The notes beneath the pieces are model-generated. The model saw nothing but the letters and a program-made list of their open reading frames with translations, was not told where the DNA came from and ran no database searches. A stretch of DNA of 32,000 nt from a virus: IMG/VR virus record IMGVR_UViG_3300017971_000185, positions 288,694 to 320,693 of that record. The stretch is one strand, 5' to 3'. Below, in pieces: positions 713 through 32,000 of this stretch (positions within the stretch are counted from its first letter, which is position 1; every line of letters starts with the position of its first letter). The translations under genes and the position numbers were made by a program.

Positions 713-878
713 GAACCAAGCAGAACGAGCACTGCGTGCGCTGATTGAAGATCTGGAGCGTCTGGTCAAAAACCTGTCTCCACTGCGTGCTCGTGAAACT
801 ATCGAGTGCGAACCGGCAACAATCGCCGTCGCGGAAATCGAAGCTGCCCTCCGTAAGCTGCCGAAGCGCTATCTGTGA
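705..878 (+). CDS. hypothetical protein ending ...AALRKLPKRYL (57 aa from GTG 705)
   Basis: ORF track 678..878. GTG at 705 lies 6 nt after AAGGAG (693-698) and overlaps the upstream stop. The C-terminal LPKRY resembles the lead-in of sigma-70 region 4. Confidence 0.4.
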   Translation: MGENQAERALRALIEDLERLVKNLSPLRARETIECEPATIAVAEIEAALRKLPKRYL

Positions 879-903
879 GCAGTACACCGAGAGACTACAG
901 GCG

Positions 904-1161
904 ATGATCATGGACCTGGAAGGCATCGATGACATGGCTCAGAACGAGCCCAGCCGCCTACGGAAACTCATGAAGGGTCTCCTGACACTGGAAGCAGAGA
1001 TTGTCGATCTCTGCTTTTTCCAGCGGACCAGCCAGGTCAAAATAGCCGAAAAGCTCGACGTAGGGCTTCCGGTAGTGGGTTATCGCCTTGGGAGAGCCGC
1101 AGCGAAGATACAGGCGATGATGGACGCAGAACAGGACATGACGATCAATGACAAACCTTGA
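904..1161 (+). CDS. sigma-70 region-4-like HTH protein (85 aa from ATG 904)
   Basis: ORF track 745..1161. The N-terminal 53 aa of that ORF look like out-of-frame noise. From MIMDLEGIDD..., the segment LEAEIVDLCFFQRTSQVKIAEKLDVGLPVVGYRLGRAAAKI matches the region-4 HTH pattern. Confidence 0.45.
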   Translation: MIMDLEGIDDMAQNEPSRLRKLMKGLLTLEAEIVDLCFFQRTSQVKIAEKLDVGLPVVGYRLGRAAAKIQAMMDAEQDMTINDKP

Positions 1162-1526: not shown

Positions 1527-1820
1527 CTACCGCCGGTAGTGCTCGCGAATCCCCGTTCGGATGGCCTTCTTCGTGGCCGCGTTCCACCTGTAAGAACGTG
1601 CATCCGCGTCGAGATTCATCAACGCATCACGCTCGCGCACCCCCTCCAACGTGCCCAGGAAATTCTCCACCGCAACAGCCTTGACCCCAGGCTGACGTGC
1701 AAGAGCCTGGATACGAGCGTCCGATAGACCCGCCTGACGGAGCAACGGAAGAACAGCATCCCGAATCTTGCCAGGGTTGGCATGAGCGAGACGGATGAGA
1801 CGTTTGCGAAGGTCAGACAT
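1527..1820 (-). CDS. LRK-NPG-LLPLL N-terminal-module family protein (97 aa)
   Basis: ATG at 1820. The N-terminus MSDLRKRLIRLAHANPGKIRDAVLPLL matches four other ORFs in the window. Confidence 0.7.
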   Translation of the reverse strand: MSDLRKRLIRLAHANPGKIRDAVLPLLRQAGLSDARIQALARQPGVKAVAVENFLGTLEGVRERDALMNLDADARSYRWNAATKKAIRTGIREHYRR

Positions 1821-1965
1821 CCTACTCGGACCAACCCTATAGCGTGAATACCGCCAAATGGGGTAAAACGTACCAGAGGATGAGCCGTGGTACTATGAGA
1901 CGACCGTACACGCTGGAGAATTGTCTTCAGACGAGCAAGAGATTGGTGCTCTGCGTGGGGGGAAG

Positions 1966-2154
1966 ATGAAACACTGCCTCTACTGTAAAAGCGAGATGAA
2001 TACGTCAGATGCGGCCTATGCGGAAAACCCGTTCTGCGTGAAATGCCTGCCCGAGAGGATGAAGAAGGCGGCTGAGGAAAGAGGACCAGGAAAATGGGTG
2101 ACCGAAGGAAACTACGTCGTGTGGAAGGAGCAAGATGAGCGAAAAAGCACGTGA
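1966..2154 (+). CDS. small zinc-ribbon protein (62 aa)
   Basis: ORF track 1921..2154 (TTG start); ATG at 1966 is more plausible. Motifs CLYC ... CVKC. Confidence 0.5.
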   Translation: MKHCLYCKSEMNTSDAAYAENPFCVKCLPERMKKAAEERGPGKWVTEGNYVVWKEQDERKST

Positions 2155-2476
2155 GTGGCTCTGTCCCAAATGCCACGGAAATCGCTGCCCCGCTTGCTTT
2201 CAAACCGGTAAGCGACTCTACGAGATCGGCGAGCAGGTCGTCTGGGACAACCAAGAGGGCAGCCTGGCACCGTGGAACGTGCGGGAGGAGGACTACCGCA
2301 CGTACGTCGGAAAGACCTACCGTGTGAACGCCCTCATGGCCCACCCCGGCGACACCGAAGATCGCTACTATGTCGGCATCGACGTGGCTATGGAAACCAT
2401 TCATGGCGGCACAGCCTCGATGCTCGTGTTCGACACAAACCTGCGCCGCCTAAGGAACAATGGACATCATCCTTGA
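2135..2476 (+). CDS. zinc-ribbon-containing hypothetical protein (113 aa)
   Basis: ORF track. CPKC..CPAC near the N-terminus. Overlaps the upstream ORF by 20 nt. Confidence 0.6.
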   Translation: MSEKAREWLCPKCHGNRCPACFQTGKRLYEIGEQVVWDNQEGSLAPWNVREEDYRTYVGKTYRVNALMAHPGDTEDRYYVGIDVAMETIHGGTASMLVFDTNLRRLRNNGHHP

Positions 2477-2807
2477 ACAAGCCAAGAAGGCCCACTGCGG
2501 AGGACTCCATGGATGGCTCAGGCGCTTCTGGCGCATCCTGACCCAAGGAAGATGGCAACCCCCTCCAGTCGTCCGAGGATGCGGCGTGTGCTGTCCAACC
2601 TGTGGGTACACCTTCGTGGCCAGCTTCAGAGGAAAACGCGACAAGGTGCTCTGTGAGCGCTGCTGGACATGGGTGGGAAGACCCAGCATCGGGATGGAGT
2701 GGGAAGGCAACGACGATGCCCAGAGGTACAGCTTGAGGGGATCGTCCTCATACGTTTTCCGGGCTTGGTCGAAGTCCAGGGTCCCGTCGATCTTTTCATC
2801 CTTGTAA
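2460..2807 (+). CDS. Cys-rich zinc-ribbon protein, 3' extent uncertain
   Basis: ATG at 2460 overlaps the upstream stop. CPTC...CERC. The last ~35 aa (SSSYVFRAWSKSRVPSIFSSL) look like antisense shadow of a minus-strand ORF. Confidence 0.45.
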   Translation: MDIILEQAKKAHCGGLHGWLRRFWRILTQGRWQPPPVVRGCGVCCPTCGYTFVASFRGKRDKVLCERCWTWVGRPSIGMEWEGNDDAQRYSLRGSSSYVFRAWSKSRVPSIFSSL

Positions 2808-2997
2808 GCCTGTAGAGTTTCATCAGCTTTCGGCAAGAGCCAGGTTCGTACACGCCCTCAATCAGTACGACGGGAAAACCCCTCCCGAGACCCTTGTCCA
2901 AGCGCTCAAAGTGATCCTGCGCATAACTCGCATGTTCGAGAAGCACCTCCTCGATAGGGAAGTCCCCTACCTGGCCGGCAACAAGTTCCGAGAACAC
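2626..2997 (-). CDS. hypothetical protein, possibly frameshifted
   Basis: The first ~55 aa (MFSELVAGQVGDFPIEEVLLEHASYAQDHFERLDKGLGRGFPVVLIEGVYEPGS) are protein-like and the rest is R/S/P-rich. A protein-like continuation (PKADETLQAYKDEKIDGTLDFDQARKTYEDDPLKLYL) lies in another minus frame from 2836. Conflicts with 2911..3105(+). Confidence 0.3.
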   Translation of the reverse strand: MFSELVAGQVGDFPIEEVLLEHASYAQDHFERLDKGLGRGFPVVLIEGVYEPGSCRKLMKLYRLTRMKRSTGPWTSTKPGKRMRTIPSSCTSGHRRCLPTPSRCWVFPPMSSSAHRAPCRVFL

Positions 2998-3105
2998 GCG
3001 AAGGAGCTTGAAGAAATGGTGGGGCTCTTCGAAAGTATCCCCTCCGAGGACCTTCGCCGTGAGTTGATGCTGGCAGGTGTAGGCGTGGAAGACCTAGGCG
3101 ATTGA
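2911..3105 (+). CDS. hypothetical small protein (alternative to the minus ORF)
   Basis: ORF track (GTG start). The C-terminal half AKELEEMVGLFESIPSEDLRRELMLAGVGVEDLGD is protein-like. An internal ATG at 3016 lies 9 nt after AAGGAG. Mutually exclusive with the 5' end of 2626..2997(-). Confidence 0.3.
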   Translation: MILRITRMFEKHLLDREVPYLAGNKFREHAKELEEMVGLFESIPSEDLRRELMLAGVGVEDLGD

Positions 3106-3133
3106 TACGGAACCAATAGCCTCTAGATGGGGA

Positions 3134-3673
3134 TCACGTACGCGGCTCGCTGAGAAGGCAAGCGTTGAACAAGGTGTGTGGCCCGGAGTGTTGTGGGTGA
3201 TACCAGGCGCCGTGTGTCCAGCCAGGGCCAGACCTGAAGCCGGCGGTCGGTTTGGCAACCCAACAACGCCGAAGAAGGGCGTCCGAAGCGTCCTTGACCA
3301 CCAGGGGCGGAAGCTCATCGGTGAAAGACGGCAGGATCTCTTGGGCAACGTCGAGCAGCATGATGATGGCCTTGTCGCCTCCAACAAGCGCTCTCTTCTG
3401 CCTGTGCTCCCAGATGTAGAGCCCGGTAACAAGCAGCGAACCCGACAACAGCACATGCCATCCGAAGAAGTCTGGAGGAGTGTCCCTCATCGATACCACC
3501 ACAACACCCACCATGAAGGCCAGTACCCCCAGATTGATCAGGAAATCATCGAGGGTCTTCGCCTTGAAAAGTACGCCGACGATCCTCGATAGCGTCCAAA
3601 ATGCCGCCATAGCGGCTAGTAGGACCACAACAACCAGAATCAGCATGGCAACCATCACCTGAAAAAATAGCAT
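3134..3673 (-). CDS. integral membrane protein (179 aa, about 3 TM segments)
   Basis: Hydrophobic stretches VMVAMLILVVVVLLAAMAAFW, LINLGVLAFMVGVVVV and VLLSGSLLVTGLYIW. Confidence 0.75.
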   Translation of the reverse strand: MLFFQVMVAMLILVVVVLLAAMAAFWTLSRIVGVLFKAKTLDDFLINLGVLAFMVGVVVVSMRDTPPDFFGWHVLLSGSLLVTGLYIWEHRQKRALVGGDKAIIMLLDVAQEILPSFTDELPPLVVKDASDALLRRCWVAKPTAGFRSGPGWTHGAWYHPQHSGPHTLFNACLLSEPRT

Positions 3674-3711
3674 GCATCAAGGGAAAGCCGCAAGAGTGGT
3701 AGTGTGGAGGC

Positions 3712-3996
3712 ATGGCAATCGATTGGGGTTCCAAGAACACAGCCATCAGGGCCGAGGGCATGCTGACCGTGATGGGTCCACAAGTGCGCGTGACCATCGG
3801 CGGAGAGGATCTAGGTATAAGCCCAGAAAAGGCCGCCGATTTTGGGGCGTACATGGTCAAGGTTGCGGCTGAGACGATAGCTGCGGCGTCAGAAGCAGAT
3901 GTTGAGGCAGGCGGGGACTACACAGCCTCGCTCGAAGAGCCCGTGACGCTGGAGTGGCGGGCCGTGAAGGATGAAAACGGAACCGAGGTCGTCTAG
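3712..3996 (+). CDS. hypothetical protein (94 aa)
   Basis: ORF track. Divergent from 3134..3673 across a 38-bp gap. Acidic, protein-like. Confidence 0.65.
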   Translation: MAIDWGSKNTAIRAEGMLTVMGPQVRVTIGGEDLGISPEKAADFGAYMVKVAAETIAAASEADVEAGGDYTASLEEPVTLEWRAVKDENGTEVV

Positions 3997-4025
3997 TCCA
4001 CGTCGTAGTCCGTCCATGACCCCGC

Positions 4026-4412
4026 ATGAGCATGACCACGTGGTCCCAACTCAGCGAGCCGGAAAAGACCAAGCTGCTGCTGAAACACCCCGCCAAGGAG
4101 ATAGCTGAGGCGCTCGAAAATAGCCTCCAGAAGCGATGGGACAACGAAAGCGGGCTCTACCACACAGAGGAATGCAGAAGGAACGGAGTGCTCAAGCTCG
4201 TCCGTCAAGCCCTAGAACCCCTCCTGCCCGATCACGAAGAGAAAGCACGGGAAGTGTATGCGCAAATCCCGTGGCCCGTAGCTCCCAAGGCATTCAGACC
4301 CGTCCCAACGTTCGAAGGCTGCATGGGGCTCGCTTGTGCGACCTGTGGCGGAACAGGCGTCTGGGGCTTCATCTCAGGTCAACGCTGTCCCGACTGTGAA
4401 GGAGGCGGGTAG
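4026..4412 (+). CDS. protein with two DnaJ-type CxxCxGxG zinc-finger motifs (128 aa)
   Basis: The C-terminus holds CATCGGTG and CPDCEGGG, which match the CxxCxGxG repeat of the DnaJ cysteine-rich domain. Confidence 0.7.
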   Translation: MSMTTWSQLSEPEKTKLLLKHPAKEIAEALENSLQKRWDNESGLYHTEECRRNGVLKLVRQALEPLLPDHEEKAREVYAQIPWPVAPKAFRPVPTFEGCMGLACATCGGTGVWGFISGQRCPDCEGGG

Positions 4413-4466
4413 GAAAGAGCTAGAGATCTCCAAGAGGCCCCCCAGGGGAATGAGATCGAGATCCCA

Positions 4467-4559
4467 GGGGAAGGAGACAGGAAAGGGAAGGAGGAGAAGG
4501 AGGAGGAGGGGAAGCACCGGAAGAAGCCCAAGCACAAGCAGAAGAGAAGGGGCAACAAG
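4467..4559. repeat. polypurine (GGA/AGG-rich) tract on the plus strand
   Basis: 4479-4514 is 36 nt of uninterrupted purines (aggaaagggaaggaggagaaggaggaggaggggaag). The flanks remain strongly purine-biased. Confidence 0.85.
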
Positions 4560-4698
4560 TGCCAACCTCCCAGACGGCAAGAAGGAGCCTCTACAGAGGG
4601 GCCCGATCACATACACGACTGGGTATCCGCAGCAGTGGAGAGCTATAGCTCGTAGAGTTTTCGGACGGGGCAGATCTGCCTCGTAAATTCCTTCGGGG

Positions 4699-5618
4699 TG
4701 AGTTTCAAGTGCCGCCAGAGCACTTGAGTTTTGAGTTTGGTCCCTGAAACTCGAAACTCAGGGTGCGTAGACGAGTTTGGTTCTCCGTTGGACCCGAATT
4801 TTCTGCCGTTGGGAGAAACAAGTTGGGTCTTGCATCGAGTTTTCGAGTGGTGCTAAAGTCCGCACCGCAAAACAGCCTGCATCTACAGTCAACACGACGC
4901 AGAGCACGCATAGATGGCATTCGGGGATCAGGGCGTGAAGCACGCACAGCTCCTCCCAAAATCGAACCGGCGAGGAGAATGCATCGACCTGCGTGCGAGC
5001 AGACAAACGCACTGCCCACATTCGCAGACAAGTTATGTCAAAACTCGACTGAACATTTGCAATTGTCGGAAAAGTTAATCATCAAACACCGATAAAACTC
5101 GACAAAATGCAAACACAAACGCGCGATGATACATTCAAACCAGACTTCGGATTCACGAAAGCTACTTCCAAACTTGTAGAGCGAGTTTGGACGCGACAAG
5201 AGCACGGGCAAATTCCGGTTTCGGTCTGGGAAACAGAAACTCGCGGCCTCGTTTACGAATTAGAGCGTGAAGAAGGCAGCGAATTTTATCGCTCAGCCCG
5301 AAGATTGCTCAAGGCGATCACGGGAAGTCGCCGTCACGACTCGTTCGGCGCGTACTTTCGGGCTGACAACGCGAAAGTTACGGACGAAAAACTTTCCGTC
5401 GCGAAAGTTTTGGATGAAACTCAGCGCAAAGTCATCGTCCCGCGCGTGAAAGGTGAGCTTCGCGAGACCAAATCCGTCATCGACACGAGTGAAACTCGAC
5501 AAATCGAGTCAAAAGTCGAGTTTGGTTTCGACGCGGACGAGTTTCACACGACTTCGGACGGTCTGAAACTCACGGACGGGGCAGATGAGCAACTTGTTCG
5601 GCAGCTTGTCGCGAGTTT
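4699..5618. repeat. dense array of 17 GAGTTT/AAACTC hexamers (consensus about CGAGTTT / AAACTCG)
   Basis: Direct count. GAGTTT starts at 4700, 4726, 4733, 4773, 4837, 5183, 5518, 5539, 5613. AAACTC starts at 4747, 4754, 5041, 5095, 5237, 5417, 5492, 5566. Confidence 0.85.
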
Positions 5619-6234
5619 CGACGGACTTTACGAAGAAATTGCAAGGCCCGAGCTAGGAATTGACCTGGCACAGCGCGGACATGAGGTACGCAAGCTGTTG
5701 TTCAAGGGCTTCCGTGGGCTGATGTTCTCGCGGGGCTACGACCCGGAGGATGTCTTGCAAGAGATCTACCGGGGCTTGCTCACTCGCAACAAGGGCAAGT
5801 GTCCGTGGGACGGGCGCAAGAGCACGTTCGGGTTCTACGTGACGATGGTGTGCCGCTGCGTGCTGACCAACTACCATCGCAAGCAGAGCCGGCGACTGGA
5901 CCGGCAAGCGGTCGAGCTAGATGAGGCGATGCTGGATGGTCAGGTCATGGACCCGAGCGATTCGAGCGATTCGAGCGACCGGCTGGCGCAGGAATCGCTG
6001 GAGAAGTGGTTATCCGACCCCGAGCGTGGTGGAGACACGCCGGATGGGAAGCTCGCGGTGGAGATCTTGCCCTTGGTGGGAGCGGGGTATCAGCGTCGGG
6101 AGATCATCGAGGTGACGGGCAAGCGGGAGACTTTGGTGAGTCGGGCCTTGGCTCACTTGAGGAAGTGGTCGAAGGAGTGGGCTTCTGAGATGGGCATGAC
6201 GATTCGCGAGAGGCGGCGTCAGCCGGTTCACTAA
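5107..6234 (+). CDS. sigma-70 family (ECF-like) RNA polymerase sigma factor with ~190-aa N-terminal extension
   Basis: Region-2-like segment DPEDVLQEIYRGLL...STFGFYVTMVCRCVLTNYHRKQSRR. Region-4-like HTH YQRREIIEVTGKRETLVSRALAHLRKW. No SD before ATG 5107. Confidence 0.75.
   Translation: MQTQTRDDTFKPDFGFTKATSKLVERVWTRQEHGQIPVSVWETETRGLVYELEREEGSEFYRSARRLLKAITGSRRHDSFGAYFRADNAKVTDEKLSVAKVLDETQRKVIVPRVKGELRETKSVIDTSETRQIESKVEFGFDADEFHTTSDGLKLTDGADEQLVRQLVASFDGLYEEIARPELGIDLAQRGHEVRKLLFKGFRGLMFSRGYDPEDVLQEIYRGLLTRNKGKCPWDGRKSTFGFYVTMVCRCVLTNYHRKQSRRLDRQAVELDEAMLDGQVMDPSDSSDSSDRLAQESLEKWLSDPERGGDTPDGKLAVEILPLVGAGYQRREIIEVTGKRETLVSRALAHLRKWSKEWASEMGMTIRERRRQPVH
5954..5980. repeat. 3 x 9-bp in-frame tandem repeat (CGAGCGATT, CGAGCGATT, CGAGCGACC)
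   Basis: Seen directly. Encodes SDSSDSSD in the linker between sigma regions 2 and 4. Confidence 0.9.
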
Positions 6235-7056: not shown

Positions 7057-7276
7057 CGGTTTCCTCCTCGTGGACGACATTGTCAGGATCGCGCTGTCAG
7101 GCATGGGGGGTCAATGTTTTTCTGGCAGGGCGAGATCGCCCTTGTGGCGCCGTGAAACGCAGATTTGTGGGGCTTTGTATACTTTCGTCGGATTCCCGCG
7201 TAGAGGGGTTGGAACCGAATGGAGATTTCTTCCACTAGGAGAGCACGCATGTACGTGATTTAAAGGAGCAGAGACA

Positions 7277-7609: not shown

Positions 7610-8010
7610 TGATGAGCATGGAGCAGCGTCACGCACTGGATTTCCAGTTTCGGTGCCGGGTCGACCAACTTAGGAGACGAATCATGCTGACAGCAGGCGA
7701 TTTGGAAAAAATCAGAAGAGGGCAAGTCGAGGAGCCGTTCTTCGATGCGTTCTTTCGTCCCGTGCTTGCAGAAGTGCTCGATCGAGTCGAGCTAACGGGC
7801 TGTACAAAGGTCGAGTTGGAAACGGATCTCAGGACGGCGCTTGCACTTCGTGTCGATCTGCCCCAGATGGAAGGGCTCATGAGGGCTTTCATCCAGCCGG
7901 TGGTCGAAACAGCGCTCGAAAAGGGGTCCAAGAAGGGTCTCTTCAAGCTCAAGGGACGCCAAAATTTCGACAATTGGACTGCTTCGATGAAAGCAGACCT
8001 AGATCCGTAA
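7609..8010 (+). CDS. hypothetical protein (133 aa)
   Basis: ORF track. The ATG overlaps the TAA of the remnant frame (TAATG). Confidence 0.6.
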   Translation: MMSMEQRHALDFQFRCRVDQLRRRIMLTAGDLEKIRRGQVEEPFFDAFFRPVLAEVLDRVELTGCTKVELETDLRTALALRVDLPQMEGLMRAFIQPVVETALEKGSKKGLFKLKGRQNFDNWTASMKADLDP

Positions 8011-8055
8011 ACTCTCGCTTGGATCTCGCGTAGGAGAGGTAGAGGAGCGTGCGTA

Positions 8056-8595
8056 TTGAGTTTCACGTGGTCTAGACCGGTCGAGAACCCCTACGGGCTC
8101 CAGGTCCGCACGTCCAAGTGCGGTCGTGCGAAGATCGCGCGTCTTTCCAAGCCCGGATGGTCGTGGAACGAGTACCTACCGCTGCTCGACGGGGTGTTTC
8201 TGCCCAAGTACTACCGGCTCAAGGACGCCAAGGCAGCCTTGGAGGCCGCTGAGACGGGCCAGGAGCTTCCAGAAGCCGTTGCACCGAAGTGGATGCACGA
8301 GTACGAGGTCACGGAGACAAAGACTCAGAGCGAGGCTGAGGCGTCCTACAAGCGTGCGACGGAGTGGTTCCGGTCCAAGGTGCGGGCAGGGCGCCATGCG
8401 GCTAACCAGGGCGCCGACAAGGCGCAGAATCCCTACGAGGTTCTGGGGCTCGATGAGACAGCCTCGCTCGATGACTGCAAGGAGGCCGCCCGAAACCTCA
8501 TCTTGCTCTACCATCCCGACAGGGAGACCGGAGACAGGGACAAATTCGAGGCAGTGAAGGCAGCGATCGATGAGATCAAGGAGCTAGCATCGTGA
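8056..8595 (+). CDS. J-domain (DnaJ-like co-chaperone) protein, J domain C-terminal (179 aa)
   Basis: NPYEVLGLDETASLDDCKEAARNLILLYHPDRETGDRDKFEAVKAAIDEI matches the J-domain pattern, including HPD. TTG start lies 9 nt after GAGGAG. Confidence 0.8.
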   Translation: MSFTWSRPVENPYGLQVRTSKCGRAKIARLSKPGWSWNEYLPLLDGVFLPKYYRLKDAKAALEAAETGQELPEAVAPKWMHEYEVTETKTQSEAEASYKRATEWFRSKVRAGRHAANQGADKAQNPYEVLGLDETASLDDCKEAARNLILLYHPDRETGDRDKFEAVKAAIDEIKELAS

Positions 8596-16650: not shown

Positions 16651-17102
16651 GTCTACACGAACGATATCCGCTTGTCTTTTCCCAGGGGCCTGCGGCGGTA
16701 CAGCACGAGTTTGGATGGAGTGCCTTGCTTGATCGGGCATGCGCCACGATCGAGAATGTGCTTTTGCGGCTACCGGAAGAGGATCGCCAGTACTACCACA
16801 TGGCATACACCAAGGAGAAGTACGGTGGTCTGGTGCTCGTGTTTCACTCTCCGACTCCGCCCTGGGGAGGGGACAAACGCTACCCGGCGCGAGAGGCTGG
16901 TCCGGGCTACGACCCGGCCGTGTGCGATGCGATCGAGAAGATCATCAAGGCGACCGAGCACGAGAGCTACACGATCTGTGAGAGTTGCGGAAAGCCAGGG
17001 GAGCTACGCATGTACTCTTGGTGTCGGACCCACTGTGAAGACTGCTTCGACCCGAGGGCGGTTTGCCCCGAAGCCTGGGAAGGCATGATTCGGATCTGCT
17101 GA
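16647..17102 (+). CDS. hypothetical protein with C-terminal zinc ribbon (151 aa)
   Basis: ORF track 16578..17102. ATG at 16647 is in an ATGA overlap. Motifs CESC...CEDC. Confidence 0.6.
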   Translation: MSLHERYPLVFSQGPAAVQHEFGWSALLDRACATIENVLLRLPEEDRQYYHMAYTKEKYGGLVLVFHSPTPPWGGDKRYPAREAGPGYDPAVCDAIEKIIKATEHESYTICESCGKPGELRMYSWCRTHCEDCFDPRAVCPEAWEGMIRIC

Positions 17103-17685: not shown

Positions 17686-18000
17686 CTAACGGAGTCGCTT
17701 GTACTTCCTGACGGTGTAGGGGCTGACGCCTAGGCGACAGGCGATCTGTCTCGATGAGCCAGAGGCGGCGGCGATCTTCTTCTGCGTCTGGGCAGAGACC
17801 AGATGGCGGAATCCGCGTTTCAAGGTAGCATCGGCAATTTGTCCACAGGTTCCGCAGAGACGCAGCAGGTACTCTTCGCCTCTGCCGATGATGATGCAGT
17901 ACCCAACCGGATCTCTGGGGCACACGGAACATGATAACCGGCGGTCAAAGGTCCACGGGAAGAACCCGAGGTACGTGAAGCCGTCGAGCGAAGTGCTCAC
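17686..18000 (-). CDS. zinc-ribbon plus C-terminal HTH DNA-binding protein (104 aa)
   Basis: Motifs CSVC...CGTC, followed by the HTH-like segment KIAAASGSSRQIACRLGVSPYTVRKY. GTG start in a GTGA overlap. Confidence 0.6.
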   Translation of the reverse strand: MSTSLDGFTYLGFFPWTFDRRLSCSVCPRDPVGYCIIIGRGEEYLLRLCGTCGQIADATLKRGFRHLVSAQTQKKIAAASGSSRQIACRLGVSPYTVRKYKRLR

Positions 18001-18352: not shown

Positions 18353-18712
18353 TCAGTTGACGATGGTTGGGTCTTCGCCTGTGACTCTCCAGTTGTTGGT
18401 GATCCACACGACGCCAATCTCGCCGTCCCATGGTCTCACGTCACGCCAGACGTTTTCGGGCGGCACTTCAATCTTGGAGGCCAGATCATCGAGATGCTCC
18501 ATTGCCTCTTTTAGGGTGGGTGATCCCGTCGTGTGGTGTAGTCTCGACTTGAGCCGTACGGCTGTCACTTCTTTCCAATCGGGAACGGGGCCGGGCATCG
18601 GCTTTTCTTCGAAGAAAGCTACGTGGTAGGTGTTGGCTTTGACGTTGTGGAGGACACAAAGGACATCTAGGGGGCCGCCAATGAATGTTCCGTTGCCGTT
18701 GTCGATCAGCAT
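18353..18712 (-). CDS. hypothetical protein (119 aa)
   Basis: ORF track. First gene of this minus-strand block. Confidence 0.65.
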   Translation of the reverse strand: MLIDNGNGTFIGGPLDVLCVLHNVKANTYHVAFFEEKPMPGPVPDWKEVTAVRLKSRLHHTTGSPTLKEAMEHLDDLASKIEVPPENVWRDVRPWDGEIGVVWITNNWRVTGEDPTIVN

Positions 18713-19048
18713 AAAATGCTCCTCTTGCTCCTACTACGCGAGATTCGGTCCAGAGTTTACACACCTGTCGAATTAGGCCGCAAGAAGCCCCGTGGTGGCC
18801 TTTTTGAACCAGGAAACTCCCCTTTGCCAATTTCTCAATTCCCTGCTCCAGCGGGGCAAGATAAGCATTGGATCGGGTCAGATACTATCTTTCCTGCGGT
18901 GTGCTGCAAAGTGGGGGTTTCTCGCTCGCGGCGAGATCGGTGAAAAACCCTTTGTTGGGATATGAAACCCTGGCCGTGTCCGAATTCGGGAAGTTATCGC
19001 CCTGAGCGTTGCGGTTTCCAACCCCGATTGGTCGCTTTCGTGTAGCAT

Positions 19049-21996: not shown

Positions 21997-22013
21997 GTAG
22001 TGCGTCCAGAACG

Positions 22014-22088
22014 CGCGCTGAGAGGGGGTCGAACCCTCGACCTTCCGGGCGAATACCCCGGCTGCTCGGCCTACTGAGCTTCCAGCGC
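22014..22088 (-). tRNA. tRNA-like gene with 9-nt (or atypical 7-nt) anticodon loop; identity undetermined
   Basis: Minus-strand read: GCGCTGG AA GCTC AGTAGGCC GAGC A GCCGG GGTATTCGC CCGGA AGGTC GAGGG TTCGACC CCCTC TCAGCGC G. The acceptor, D and T arms are canonical. The anticodon region is not. Confidence 0.55.
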
Positions 22089-24588: not shown

Positions 24589-25008
24589 ATGAGAGATGCG
24601 TGGGACGTGGAGGGCGAGGAGTCCGTAGCTCTCGTGAAGTGGTGTGACAAGCGGAAGTGCCTCCGAATCGGCGTACCACAAGGCGGCTGCCGAGGAGCTA
24701 GCGGTGCAAACGGGAGAGCAGAAACCCCGATAACGCTCGGGGCCGGCGGCCCGTCTCTACCCGTTTGCGAGGTCGGCTTTGGACGGAGCCGAGGTCAACC
24801 TATCCTCGCTCCAGTATACCCTTGCATTTGCTCAGGGAGTCGTGTAGAAGGTGATCAGAGGTCAACATGTTCATCCTCAGCCGTCGAATATCCAAGCCTG
24901 TCGCCCCCGTTCCCAGCGGTATGGGTGTCGTCGTCGTGCGCTTGGCGTTTGACAGGCGACGGTGAACGCCAGGCTCAAGGACCGCGGAACGGGCGTATAG
25001 GCCCGTAG
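24589..25008 (+). pseudogene. possible degenerate VRR-NUC-like nuclease ORF
   Basis: MRDAWDVEGEESVALVKWCDKRKCLRIGVPQGGCRG...LGAGGPSLPVCEVGFGRSRGQP loosely follows the VRR-NUC pattern (E..q.alv.w......ipNGG.R....G...G.PDl....iEvK...g.ls..Q). It has PSL for PDL and EVG for E-x-K. The tail is S/C/R-rich and runs into the tRNA. Confidence 0.25.
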
Positions 25009-25072
25009 CTCAGTCGGTTAGAGCGTGGGGCTCATAACCCCGTGGTCCTCGGTTCAATCCCGAGCGGGCCTA
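24999..25072 (+). tRNA. tRNA with CAT anticodon (Met or lysidine-dependent Ile2)
   Basis: AGGCCCG TA GCTC AGTCGGTTA GAGC G TGGGG CTCATAA CCCCG TGGTC CTCGG TTCAATC CCGAG CGGGCCT A. Full cloverleaf. No encoded CCA. Confidence 0.85.
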
Positions 25073-25087
25073 CGAAAAGCATTCAAG

Positions 25088-25161
25088 GAGGACGTATCGG
25101 CCCAGTCTCCTAAACTGGCAAGCCGTAATGGATGATGGGGGTTCGAGTCCCTCCGTCCTCA
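25088..25161 (+). tRNA. non-canonical 74-nt tRNA-like element carrying a CCT (Arg) anticodon-type hairpin
   Basis: Perfect acceptor GAGGACG/CGTCCTC plus discriminator A. T arm GGGGG-TTCGAGT-CCCTC. The hairpin CCAGT-CTCCTAA-ACTGG (25102-25118) is displaced toward the 5' end and no D arm sits in the normal place. Confidence 0.4.
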
Positions 25162-25477: not shown

Positions 25478-25674
25478 AAGAGCACTGTACCAGACATCTC
25501 CGAAAAGGGATCAAGAAGCCAGCCGTGTACATCCTCGAAGGCGGGCTATGCGAGACTTGTTGGATCGATTGGTGGATCGAAGGACTGCACATCGAGAACC
25601 CGAGAGAACGAGCCAAAGTACGTCGAGAGACAAAAGCTGCCTTAAGGAGAAGACGCAAGCGAAAGGCCGGGTAG
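25474..25674 (+). CDS. small basic Cys-containing protein (66 aa)
   Basis: ATG at 25474 is in an ATGA overlap. MKEHCTRHLRKGIKKPAVYILEGGLCETCW.... The last 10 nt overlap tRNA-Val. Confidence 0.5.
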   Translation: MKEHCTRHLRKGIKKPAVYILEGGLCETCWIDWWIEGLHIENPRERAKVRRETKAALRRRRKRKAG

Positions 25675-25741
25675 CTCAGATGGTTAGAGCACCATCCCGA
25701 CACGGTGGGGGTCCTCGGTTCGATCCCGAGCCCGGTCACCA
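25665..25741 (+). tRNA. tRNA-Val (GAC), CCA encoded, C at position 33
   Basis: GGCCGGG TA GCTC AGATGGTTA GAGC A CCATC CCGACAC GGTGG GGGTC CTCGG TTCGATC CCGAG CCCGGTC A CCA. Confidence 0.8.
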
Positions 25742-25742
25742 C

Positions 25743-25817
25743 GTTCCTGTAGCTCAGCCCGGACAGAGCGTCACGTTCCGAACGTGAGGGGCGTAGGTTC
25801 AAATCCTACCAGGAACG
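25743..25817 (+). tRNA. tRNA-Arg (CCG)
   Basis: GTTCCTG TA GCTC AGCCCGGACA GAGC G TCACG TTCCGAA CGTGA GGGGC GTAGG TTCAAAT CCTAC CAGGAAC G. Starts 1 nt after the CCA of tRNA-Val. Confidence 0.85.
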
Positions 25818-25878
25818 CAAGTATACTTTCTGCCGAAACTCACGTAGACAAGAGCGTGTGGAGACGACACAAACCTCT

Positions 25879-26653: not shown

Positions 26654-26870
26654 AGAAGTGCTACGACAGCGCGTTCAAGGTGCCATCCGCGAGGAGATTC
26701 GGTTGCGCATAGTATGGGAAAATGCGGTAGAGCGTGCCAAGACAGGCGCTCCTGGTGCGCGGCATGCCGAAGAGGACGCTGCGTATGCCCTCGGCCTAGC
26801 TCGCAAACAAGTGAACGAGCAAATGCGGCAGTTGATGGAGCACTGTCGCCGGAGGTACGGATACGGCTAG
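26631..26870 (+). CDS. hypothetical small protein (79 aa from ATG 26631)
   Basis: ORF track 26589..26870. MKQTLTTEEVLRQRVQGAIREEIRLRIVWEN.... Confidence 0.5.
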   Translation: MKQTLTTEEVLRQRVQGAIREEIRLRIVWENAVERAKTGAPGARHAEEDAAYALGLARKQVNEQMRQLMEHCRRRYGYG

Positions 26871-27796
26871 TAGAGGTTTCTGATCTCAGGCGCAGCCGTG
26901 AACAGGCGGCAATGCGTTCCCGGTGTATAGTACCGTAACTGCAAACCGTTGCGAGCTAGTGCATGGTGGACGGGAGGATCCGAGATGCGCGTCGTGTTCT
27001 GCTGACAGGCGAACGTCGTTGTCCACGTTGCGTTGAAGGACGGGATGTACTCGTAAGCGGTTCGCGTCACACGGAAGGCTGAGCGGATGGTCTTGATGAT
27101 TTCGACGTGGTGAGCATCGAGGGGACCGCTCAGGCGGATGCCTCCTGTCTGTGCGGCAAAGATGCCTCTGTCACGCAGTTTCCCGCCAATGGCCGAGAAG
27201 AAGTCCTTGGTGAACAACCGCTCAGAGAGATTGTTGCTGTCGCCCGTGTCATCGTAGGGCTCAGTGAGATCGGAGATGATCACGTTCCAAGTCTGGTTCT
27301 CGTTGAGCACAGTGGACGCGTCGGAGATGCGGACGGTAACGCGCTCGTCCTCGAATGCGCCGTGTGTCCATTCGGGAAAGAGCACCTTGAAGGTCTCGAT
27401 CATGTCTTCATCGATCTCGACCAAGCAGACTTCTTTCACGTCGGGCCACTTGAGCACTTCGCGGAGAGCACAGCCATCGCCGCCACCGAGGATGAGCACA
27501 CGCCCGATGTTCTGGGCCATGACCATGGCCGGATGCACGAGCATGTCGTGGTAGATATACTCGTCACTCTCCGCAACCTGGATGCGCCCGTCTAGAATCA
27601 GAGTGCGTCCGAGGTCCGCGAAGTCTGCTAGCTGGATGAGTTGGTACTCGCTTTGCTTTTCGTAGAGGAGATCGCGGATACCCCACAGAGCGAAGAAGGA
27701 TTCGCTCTCTGCCTCAAGAAACCAGCGCGGCTGTCGAGTCTCCAGCAAGTGCGGCAGAGATTCCAACGGACTAAAGATTCGGTTGGCTGGTATCAC
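26867..27796 (-). CDS. spermidine synthase-like (polyamine aminopropyltransferase fold) protein
   Basis: VLILGGGDGCALREVLKW, VCLVEIDEDMIE and VIISDLTEP match the GGGDGG / (V/I)EID / D-x-x-(D/E)P motifs of the spermidine synthase family. GTG at 27796 is in a GTGA overlap downstream of AAGGAGG. Confidence 0.8.
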   Translation of the reverse strand: MIPANRIFSPLESLPHLLETRQPRWFLEAESESFFALWGIRDLLYEKQSEYQLIQLADFADLGRTLILDGRIQVAESDEYIYHDMLVHPAMVMAQNIGRVLILGGGDGCALREVLKWPDVKEVCLVEIDEDMIETFKVLFPEWTHGAFEDERVTVRISDASTVLNENQTWNVIISDLTEPYDDTGDSNNLSERLFTKDFFSAIGGKLRDRGIFAAQTGGIRLSGPLDAHHVEIIKTIRSAFRVTRTAYEYIPSFNATWTTTFACQQNTTRISDPPVHHALARNGLQLRYYTPGTHCRLFTAAPEIRNLY

Positions 27797-27990
27797 CAAC
27801 GGAGTCCCTCCTTGCGCCGTTGTTCTTGCTCCTCGCAGACGCTCCGAAGCTGGCTCCAATTGCGGATGACGTTGAGATCGTCCAGGGCTTCTTTGGTTTC
27901 CTGGGTCATCGTGGCTTGGAAAGGCAGCCGATCGTCGTTGCGGAAGCTCTCGCTCGCGTAGTTGAAGGTCGTGATGTTTTGCCGTCTCAC
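27793..27990 (-). CDS. hypothetical small protein (65 aa)
   Basis: ORF track (GTG start). Coupled to the downstream spermidine-synthase-like gene. Confidence 0.5.
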   Translation of the reverse strand: MRRQNITTFNYASESFRNDDRLPFQATMTQETKEALDDLNVIRNWSQLRSVCEEQEQRRKEGLRW

Positions 27991-31098: not shown

Positions 31099-32000
31099 AT
31101 GCCCAAGAAGACCAAGAAGCAAAAGACCAAGAAAAAGAAGACTTCCGCCGCGCGAGCCACCAAGGTGAGGAAGCCTCCCAAGAGGAAAACCCCCGGATTG
31201 AGCGGTGCAGAACGAGCCGCCAAGAAACGAGCCGCACGCAAGAAGTTGACTGCGGACAACCGACGCAAGAAGTACGCTAAGCGCACGACGGAGTTTGGCG
31301 CACGAATCACTCTGACTCGCGCGAAGGGTCTCCTCTCTCTGAATTATGAGGGACAGCGGAACCTCCGTCCCACCAGAGTCGATCAATTCTGTGGCATTCT
31401 CCGTCGCGGGTTGTGGATTGAGTCCGGTGAGCCCATCATCATCGACTGGTTTGGGAACCTGATCAACGGGCAGCATCGGCTGGCTGCCATCGTCAAGACC
31501 GGAATCACCGCCAAGATCGACATCACCTATGGCGTTCCGCCAAAGGCGTTTGATGTGATCGATACTGGTGCCGTGCGTGCTCTCTACGACATCCTGCCTG
31601 TGGAGTTTCCCAAGCAGGTTTCGGCGCTGTATCGCGTCTACCTGGATTTCAAGACCACCGAGGGAGCGACTTACACCAGCTTTGGTCGACGGAGTGCTTC
31701 GGCCTTCCGTGAGGATCGGACCGGAGCCATCCAGTGGGCGCAGCGGAACGAAAAGCTCTTGACCAAGATCGTCAAGACGTGTCATGTGGACAAGGACGCT
31801 CGCGCATTGCTCCGTCCTCCCGCAGTGTTTAACGCGTTCTACTTCCTCGTCGCTCGCAAGGCACCCAAGGAAGCGGACACGTTCTTCCGCACTCTGATCG
31901 ACGGCGTGGAGTTTGAGTTGAAGGGGCTCGACCCCATCTACCAGCTTCGGCAGAATCTCGTGATGTTCAACGACAAGTACAAGAACAAGCGAGGGACTGC
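31099..32000 (+). CDS. ParB-like nuclease-domain protein with Lys-rich N-terminal tail (partial, runs off the window)
   Basis: Not in the ORF track because no stop lies within the window. ATG at 31099. MPKKTKKQKTKKKKTS... followed by GLWIESGEPIIIDWFGNLINGQHRLAAIVKTG, which matches the ParB N-terminal/DGQHR-type motif. The minus ORFs here are shadows. Confidence 0.75.
   Translation, partial: MPKKTKKQKTKKKKTSAARATKVRKPPKRKTPGLSGAERAAKKRAARKKLTADNRRKKYAKRTTEFGARITLTRAKGLLSLNYEGQRNLRPTRVDQFCGILRRGLWIESGEPIIIDWFGNLINGQHRLAAIVKTGITAKIDITYGVPPKAFDVIDTGAVRALYDILPVEFPKQVSALYRVYLDFKTTEGATYTSFGRRSASAFREDRTGAIQWAQRNEKLLTKIVKTCHVDKDARALLRPPAVFNAFYFLVARKAPKEADTFFRTLIDGVEFELKGLDPIYQLRQNLVMFNDKYKNKRGT

Follow-up and report, generated by a model that had tools for sequence, protein, structure and literature searches.

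Why should one hexanucleotide, AAACTC, and its reverse complement, GAGTTT, accumulate just upstream of a single gene and then continue into the 5' half of its coding sequence? This question was raised by the 32,000-nt stretch analysed here (positions 288,694-320,693 of the virus record IMGVR_UViG_3300017971_000185, hereafter the window), in which an exact search located 18 copies of the word within 964 bp (4655-5618; 10 on the plus strand and 8 on the minus strand), distributed in three groups, A, B and C, around a promoter-like element, an AT-rich island and the 5' half of an open reading frame (ORF, 5107-6234) whose 375-amino acid (aa) product resembles sigma factors. The nine GAGTTT and eight AAACTC copies listed in an original prediction, made by a model from the sequence alone, were all found at exactly the positions given, and a further GAGTTT at 4655, absent from that list, is the 18th of the array. 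Our analysis gives good support to the view that the words are kept as DNA, as an array of predicted protein-binding sites, and it is tentatively proposed, at a probability of roughly 0.4, that this array is a multi-site operator cluster gating the sigma-like gene, possibly bound by the gene's own product. The features of the locus are as follows.

5107-6234, plus strand: sigma-like ORF, 375 aa.
4655-4842: cluster A, a non-coding stretch of 188 bp with nine GAGTTT/AAACTC words, lying 270-450 bp 5' of the ATG.
4669-4680: palindrome GGCAGATCTGCC, perfect over 12 bp, at the outer edge of cluster A.
4705-4728, plus strand: terminator-like hairpin, TCAAGTGC-N7-GCACTTGA, followed by a U-rich tail from two array words.
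4725-4760: inverted repeat, TGAGTTTTGAGTTT / AAACTCGAAACTCA, with 14-nt arms, 93% complementary, and an 8-nt spacer.
4888-4913, plus strand: predicted promoter for the sigma-like gene, GTCAACACG-N10-CGCATAG, in the interval separating clusters A and B.
5028-5120: AT-rich island, 23-24 G/C per 70 nt, the most AT-rich part of the window, abutting the ATG at 5107.
5041-5242: cluster B, four words around the start codon and in the part coding for the conserved N-terminal domain.
5417-5618: cluster C, six words in 200 bp encoding the variable linker (aa 104-171).

The array stands far above chance. Fifty copies of the word were counted on both strands of the whole window, compared with 15.9 ± 3.7 (maximum 27) in dinucleotide-preserving shuffles, and a scan of all hexamers placed the array as the top 1-kb cluster of the window (Poisson p ~1e-16), where 1.1 copies would be predicted by a first-order Markov model built on the region itself. 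The enrichment persisted in k-mer counts over the window, and the extension to CGAGTTT/AAACTCG, ascribed to most copies in the original prediction, was observed in 11 of the 18; the rest of the window (~31 kb), for which about a dozen copies had been estimated, in fact holds 32, about twice the chance expectation. No copy occurs in a further 4.9 kb of the source contig upstream of the window, and the array is the single cluster of its kind in the resulting 37 kb. Pooling of 67 sites from five relatives gave a 9-bp consensus, Y-V-AAACTC-R, in which position -1 is never T and position +6 is G or A in 62 sites. When one mismatch to AAACTCG was allowed, 24 of the 106 sites of the window fell within 4600-5700. 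The spacings between array sites are irregular, ranging from 7 to 204 bp with no period, and no helical phasing was seen when the positions were inspected by eye. A 13-mer, GAGTTTTCGAGTG, shared between 4837 and 13734 was judged to be compatible with chance in 32 kb.

Comparison with four relatives of the ORF, L002, L003, L005 and L007 (99, 87, 77 and 60% protein identity, respectively), demonstrated that the cluster is present at the same place in all of them. In cluster A, two tandem TGAGTTT heptads face two AAACTC heptads, and L003 and L005 retain the words at the same positions, as L007 does in part. The copies of cluster B at +76 and +130 occupy identical positions in L003, L005 and L007, and the words of cluster C occur in both orientations and in three codon phases. 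Two elements between and beside the words are also conserved down to 60% protein identity, as evidenced in the alignments: the palindrome GGCAGATCTGCC, which is invariant, and the block CGCATAGATGG (4907-4917) in the promoter-like element, which is invariant in the four relatives. The count of 24 G/C originally reported for the 70 nt at 5051-5120 is correct, and the minimum of the window, 23 G/C, lies at 5028-5097. Two side observations concern the borders of the array. An exact 14-nt direct repeat, CGGACGGGGCAGAT, is located at its outer edges (4662-4675 and 5573-5586, 911 bp apart; chance would give ~0.007 matches of this kind in 1.9 kb), of which the first copy overlaps the palindrome and the second lies in coding sequence (LTDGADE). 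A polypurine tract (GGAGGAGAAGGAGGAGGAGGGGAAG...) occupies 4413-4600, between a gene at 4026-4412 and the array, and in L002 gene callers placed a 96-aa ORF over it.

Are the words inside the ORF maintained as DNA, or do they follow from what the gene encodes? All eight of them fall in the first 171 codons and none in the other 204. Resampling of synonymous codons from the usage of the window gave 1.17 expected words (P < 2e-4), and shuffling of the ORF's own synonymous codons gave 2.39 (P = 0.0008). The codon phases of the words are 1, 1, 1, 1, 0, 0, 0 and 2, on both strands, and the original argument, that several phases within the ORF speak for a DNA word rather than a peptide, is borne out by these tests. 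Between the window and L007, codons that keep their amino acid and overlap words are identical in 13 of 14 cases, compared with 35 of 81 elsewhere (p = 5e-4), and nucleotide identity is 85% within the words versus 56% outside (p = 3e-5). Individual sites have been gained, lost and inverted among the relatives, for example at +411 in L003 and at +392, +406 and +481 in L007, while the cluster persists. Such turnover, together with the use of both orientations, suggests protein-binding sites and not RNA helices or peptides.

An element acting at the level of RNA, in which GAGUUU and AAACUC would pair in the leader or mRNA, or a by-product of codon or peptide preference, is the least probable of the explanations considered here. 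The complementary words do permit hairpins, the inverted repeat at 4725-4760 is the main element in the predicted fold of 4690-4790, and the upstream hairpin at 4705-4728 displays a double compensatory change in L003 (CAGATGC/GCATCTG). However, the z-score of the fold is only -1.78, and the pairing partners are not conserved, given that L003 has lost the word at +411 but retained its partner and that L007 has three copies on the same strand. In addition, Rfam finds only tRNAs in the window and nothing in 4.4-5.7 kb. A codon or peptide by-product is rejected by the resampling and by the occurrence of the words in three phases and on two strands.

The two-part layout, with repeated words at about -450 and +400 relative to the gene, recurs across the metagenomic family. 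Among 43 non-redundant loci, scored for any 6-mer repeated at least four times per 200-bp piece, such a repeat was found in the piece from +320 to +520 in 18 loci, compared with 1-2 of the 43 in pieces coding for the sigma domain (Wilcoxon p = 5e-6), and the piece from -520 to -320 is enriched too (p = 0.01). The recurrence of the layout adds to the codon tests, synonymous conservation and site turnover in favour of the general proposal of an array of protein-binding sites. The repeated word itself is specific to each clade.

Window clade: AAACTCR.
L037, L038, L082 and L092: palindromes GGGAGTTYNAACTCCC.
L091: GAAACTT, including CCAAGTTTCGAAACTTGG.
L013: TCGAAAC.
L085: 17 perfect tandem 8-bp units (GGTCATCG-type) at ~1570-1700, -514 to -394 of the gene, the position of cluster A.

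The gene downstream of the tandem units in L085 is a distant sigma-like homologue. Searches of the fetched loci with the window ORFs (tblastn) revealed that the sigma-like gene is the only gene common to them, the neighbours being different. Positions that stay the same while the sequence changes from clade to clade are the mark of a protein and its DNA site that co-evolve and stay together as one module.

What kind of protein does the linked gene encode? Alignment of the 375-aa product with its relatives revealed a conserved N-terminal domain (aa ~20-90), a variable linker (~95-185) and a conserved C-terminal half carrying motifs typical of sigma regions 2 and 4. Full-length metagenomic relatives number in the hundreds, some of which are named 'sigma24 family' by the Joint Genome Institute (JGI), and Pfam gave no match for the product or its relatives. 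A profile of the family matched sigma-H (3mzy) in the PDB over regions 2-4 (E = 0.002). The AlphaFold model has a mean predicted local distance difference test score (pLDDT) of 77, rising above 90 in both domains, and the top Foldseek match of the C-terminal half, albeit weak (E = 0.065), is 9m7y_F, chain F of the phiEco32 gp79-RNA polymerase-sigma complex; further weak structural matches were to phage sigma proteins in BFVD. The C-terminal half is predicted to resemble sigma factors of the extracytoplasmic function (ECF) type. The phiEco32 protein gp36 is a phage ECF-like sigma factor (PMC12276001, PMC8948821), and the C-terminal half of the ORF product is closest in structure to this sigma complex by the weak match above. 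Unlike in the gp36 system, the sigma-like protein here has a 185-aa N-terminal extension including a novel domain of four strands and two helices, for which no significant structural match was obtained in the PDB (best E = 1.2). The spacer that separates the region 2-like from the region 4-like part contains DSSDSSD, encoded by 2.8 tandem copies of the 9-bp unit CGAGCGATT (5954-5978), and the copy number is different in L003 and L005.

A possible target of this protein emerged from the copies of the word outside the array. The window has six occurrences of AAAC-N16-CGTA where 0.33 would be expected, four of them carrying AAACTC, and four AAACTC copies outside the array have CGTA 14 nt further on. 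A spacing peak was observed for AAC-N14-CGCGTAG (8 versus 0-4). Six promoter-like sites were found.

8007-8033, plus strand: GTAAACTCT-N11-CGCGTAG, followed by a GGAG-rich stretch, with a start codon 47 nt after AAAC.
18734-18760, minus strand: GTAAACTCT-N11-CGCGTAG, with the ATG of gene 18353-18712 at 46 nt after AAAC.
31273-31296, minus strand: AAACTCC-N13-CGTA.
31585-31608, minus strand: GGAAACTCC-N13-CGTAGA.
7177-7203, plus strand: GTATACTTT-N11-CGCGTAG, the same element being present in L003.
16821-16844, minus strand: promoter-like site.

The gene 3' of the site at 8007-8033 encodes a DnaJ-domain protein (8056-8595), and GGAG-rich stretches precede the start codons at both GTAAACTCT sites. 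Composite elements with the same 11-nt spacer to CGCGTAG were found in L003 (GTAAACTTT and GTATACTTT), L005 (GTGAACTTT), L091 (ATAAACTTC and GCCAACTTC) and L037 (CTAAACCAC). ECF promoters follow a pattern of AAC at -35 and CGT at -10. A -35 AAC, a spacer of 16-17 bp and a -10 CGT oriented toward a gene were found at 8009, 18758, 31296, 31608 and 16844. The dispersed element GTAAACTYT-N11-CGCGTAG thus resembles ECF promoters in fitting AAC-N16-CGT and in preceding genes, and it is plausibly the candidate target of the sigma-like protein. The array shares its core, AAACT, with the -35 half of this motif. The block at 4888-4913, in which CGCATAG is one base off CGCGTAG, looks like a weaker copy of the same predicted promoter, and would mean that the gene is under the positive autoregulation usual for ECF factors.

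In distant relatives CGCGTAG, often as TTCCGCGTAGTTG, is extremely enriched and lies strictly on the strand of the sigma-like gene (L034 at 1724-4074, L092, L082, L028 and L026); L034 carries 23 copies on the plus strand and none on the minus strand in 7.4 kb, some of them in 32-bp tandem units. These copies may represent a -10-only promoter or another strand-specific signal. AAAC as a general -35 partner of CGCGTAG was considered and fails in the distant clade, holding only in the window clade, in L091 and at one site of L037.

How might the array act on the gene? In the reading favoured here, a sequence-specific DNA-binding protein would occupy the upstream and intragenic groups cooperatively, bridging the ~750 bp that separate them by looping or by spreading, and its occupancy would gate transcription of the sigma gene, whether by repression or by activation. 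In turn, the sigma factor might drive GTAAACTYT-N11-CGCGTAG promoters at other places in the genome. The conserved block at 4888-4913, where the promoter is predicted from sequence, has cluster A on one side and clusters B/C on the other. The most economical candidate for the binder would be the gene's own product, acting via region 4 or the N-terminal domain, in which case the locus would be an autoregulatory device. Of the functions that the original prediction had listed for the array, a multi-site operator fits best, an origin is weakened, and a packaging or partition site is left unsupported.

The nearest analogues that we know of would be intragenic auxiliary operators and the groups of DnaA boxes around dnaA. 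Auxiliary operators in coding regions that act with looping include lac O2 in lacZ, gal OI in galE and the CI operator OD of TP901-1. As in these cases, sites lie both 5' of the promoter and several hundred bp inside a coding sequence that is constrained by the DNA site. Unlike these systems, which use two or three dyad operators, the array has ~18 short sites in mixed orientations around a sigma gene of a huge phage, with a putative binder. In oriC of the Bacillus type, DnaA boxes form two-part clusters around dnaA, whose promoter is autoregulated. The array is similar in having many 9-bp boxes in both orientations with irregular spacing, grouped around the 5' side of a gene with an AT-rich element adjacent. 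By this analogy, the groups would surround the gene whose product binds them and would combine autoregulation with a cis site. The array differs from this case in its word, AAACTC and not TTATCCACA, in its sigma-like gene and in the absence of a skew switch in the window.

Several observations weigh against the favoured reading. The flanks of the array words differ from those of the promoters, with position -1 never T and position +6 R in the array but T at -1 and Y at +6 in the promoters, and given this difference, sigma region 4 is not clearly the reader of the array. The words were rejected as complete promoters, only 2 of the 18 having CGT at promoter spacing. In a pooled logo, the CGCGTAG elements of the distant clade have no -35 consensus. 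The N-terminal domain is without a recognisable DNA-binding fold. Finally, an AT-rich island flanked by repeated words is origin-like as well.

A special form of autoregulation is conceivable, though improbable, in which the sigma-like protein itself reads the array as ~20 decoy or tethering sites with a -35-like core and no -10 element. Newly made sigma factor would be captured in cis and then released to promoters genome-wide once the array is saturated. The array departs from ECF promoters: 16 of its 18 copies are without a -10 half, its words point in both directions and their flanks are different, and CGT at a spacer of 15 was found only at 4747 (CGTAG) and 5417 (CGTC). Co-variation between the array word and the region 4.2 helix (VSRALAHLR with AAACTCR, VSRALAWLR with AACTCCC and VGRGMAHLR with GAAACTT) is suggestive but confounded by phylogeny.

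In an alternative reading, a separate regulator of phage or host, encoded elsewhere in the ~0.5-Mb genome, such as a small helix-turn-helix (HTH) protein, would silence or time the sigma gene. This is possible though on balance doubtful. The resemblance to the -35 element would in that event reflect competition with the sigma factor at promoters, and flanks unlike those of the promoter -35 suggest a reader other than region 4. All the evidence for a regulatory cluster fits this reading too, the palindromic pairs GGGAGTTTCAAACTCCC and CCAAGTTTCGAAACTTGG of other clades suit a dimeric HTH protein, the invariant 12-bp palindrome at the edge of cluster A also favours such a regulator, and HTH proteins are encoded in the window. 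However, no regulator gene is conserved beside the array, where the neighbours differ completely between loci, and the clade-specific words would need a regulator that co-evolves with them while being retained at another place in a mosaic genome.

Could the array instead be a replication origin, with the words as initiator boxes that flank an AT-rich unwinding element and lie partly inside, or are split around, the gene? The most AT-rich 70-90 nt of the window lie at the centre of the array with a direct copy of AAAACTCGAC on either side (5040-5049 and 5094-5103), so that the array has the adjacent AT-rich element of an origin, and several relatives share this minimum at the start of the gene, the lowest-GC 400-nt stretch being located there in L091, L007 and L037. 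The island, however, doubles as the gene leader and is an ambiguous feature. In L091 and L092 the cumulative GC-skew minimum lies 574-601 bp 5' of the gene, where gene orientation diverges, but coincidence with a switch of the gene strand explains these minima without replication. In the window, GC skew stays positive to either side of the array, and the cumulative curve climbs monotonically, with no inflection. The occurrence of only one such cluster in 37 kb would suit an origin, and so would its position in linker-coding sequence, which parallels the origin of lambda.

The ori of lambda lies inside gene O, and plasmid iterons surround rep genes, as in P1 incC/incA and F ori2. Like these, the array is a cis site in a linker-coding part or flanking a gene, and its lineage-specific specificity travels with that gene. 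Unlike iterons, which are direct repeats of 17-22 bp in helical phase, the words are 9 bp long, bidirectional and irregularly spaced, and the linked protein is sigma-like, not a winged-helix initiator of the Rep, O or DnaA type. Pfam and PHROGs gave no replication match for the 375-aa product, and no replication gene was recognised among the nearby ORFs scanned. With no skew switch in the window, sites that are not iterons and a sigma-like gene, the origin put forward in the original prediction appears unlikely.

The remaining proposal, a packaging (pac) or partition (centromere) site, in which cleavage or assembly would take place between two groups of words within the binder's own gene, is very unlikely. 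The P1 pac site consists of seven hexamers in two groups inside pacA, and in SPP1, pacL and pacR lie around gene 1. The array resembles both in having two groups of short words that lie within and 5' of a presumed binder's gene, in promoter and 5' coding sequence, and differs from them in the absence of a terminase context and of a fixed DNA end: no terminase was found in the window or among the neighbouring genes scanned. Metagenomic contigs often end within a few hundred bp 5' of the sigma-like gene, at variable positions (L034/L036, L031/L033 and others), and 8 of 38 contigs of at least 5 kb end within the outer 10% upstream of the gene, compared with ~3.8 expected, which could point to packaging. 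However, the ends of contigs that are 99-100% identical lie 52 and 266 bp apart, suggesting assembly breaks and no fixed terminus, and the region is internal in contigs of 527 kb and 95 kb. The end bias was ruled out as a genome terminus on account of this variability, and variable ends together with differing upstream genes make a recombination or mosaic junction more likely. For partition, no Pfam match of the ParA/ParB or ParM/ParR type was obtained in the ORFs scanned, the scan having covered part of the window's small ORFs.

The window is identical to ~119-151 kb of a 527,654-bp ENA contig (ERZ27256778, k141_1249434), and the same protein was found in 17 collections of contigs of 0.2-1 Mb. 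From its size, tRNAs and gene content, the source element is probably a huge phage. No nucleotide match was obtained in the phage collection and no protein match in plasmids; phage records yielded a single match, LR745208, an uncultured phage of 485 kb that encodes a shorter, distant homologue and lacks the array. No host is assigned, since relatives in reference genomes occur on only two contigs of metagenome-assembled genomes (MAGs). The genes of the window are mostly small unannotatable ORFs, nearly all without family assignment, and Pfam and PHROGs on the ORFs scanned gave almost nothing beyond the DnaJ domain, a spermidine synthase, HTH_17 and weak sigma region 4 matches. The last of these include the ORFs at 745-1161 (plus strand) and 17686-18000 (minus strand), whose weak sigma-70 region 4-like HTH matches (E ~1e-3 and 2e-2, respectively) make them possible candidates for array binding. 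The spermidine synthase gene (26867-27859, minus strand; Pfam E = 1.5e-36) may be an auxiliary metabolic gene. The number of tRNA genes is four or five, located at 22013-22088 (minus strand), 24999-25161 (plus strand) and 25665-25818 (plus strand). The cluster near 25 kb encodes Met, Val and Arg tRNAs and a fourth found by Rfam only (25088-25161), and the tRNA-Asn at 22013-22088, with the unusual anticodon ATT, was reported by ARAGORN and not by Rfam.

To our knowledge, gene regulation in huge phages is almost unknown. At this locus, selection on the array as DNA overrides the freedom of protein coding in the linker. If the binder is the sigma factor itself, this would be a new way of sigma-factor control, and we know of no self-titrating architecture of this sort described for any sigma factor; self-titration, if true, would mean that DNA itself times a phage sigma factor or gates its dosage, a device shared, with words that co-evolve, by the uncultivated huge phages of a large family. 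Should the array prove to be an origin, this group of phages would have its first origin defined by sequence. The locus provides a testable module, comprising a conserved array of sites, a sigma-like factor whose N-terminal domain is novel and a candidate consensus for its promoters, and its clade-specific words offer a natural set of matched protein-DNA specificities.

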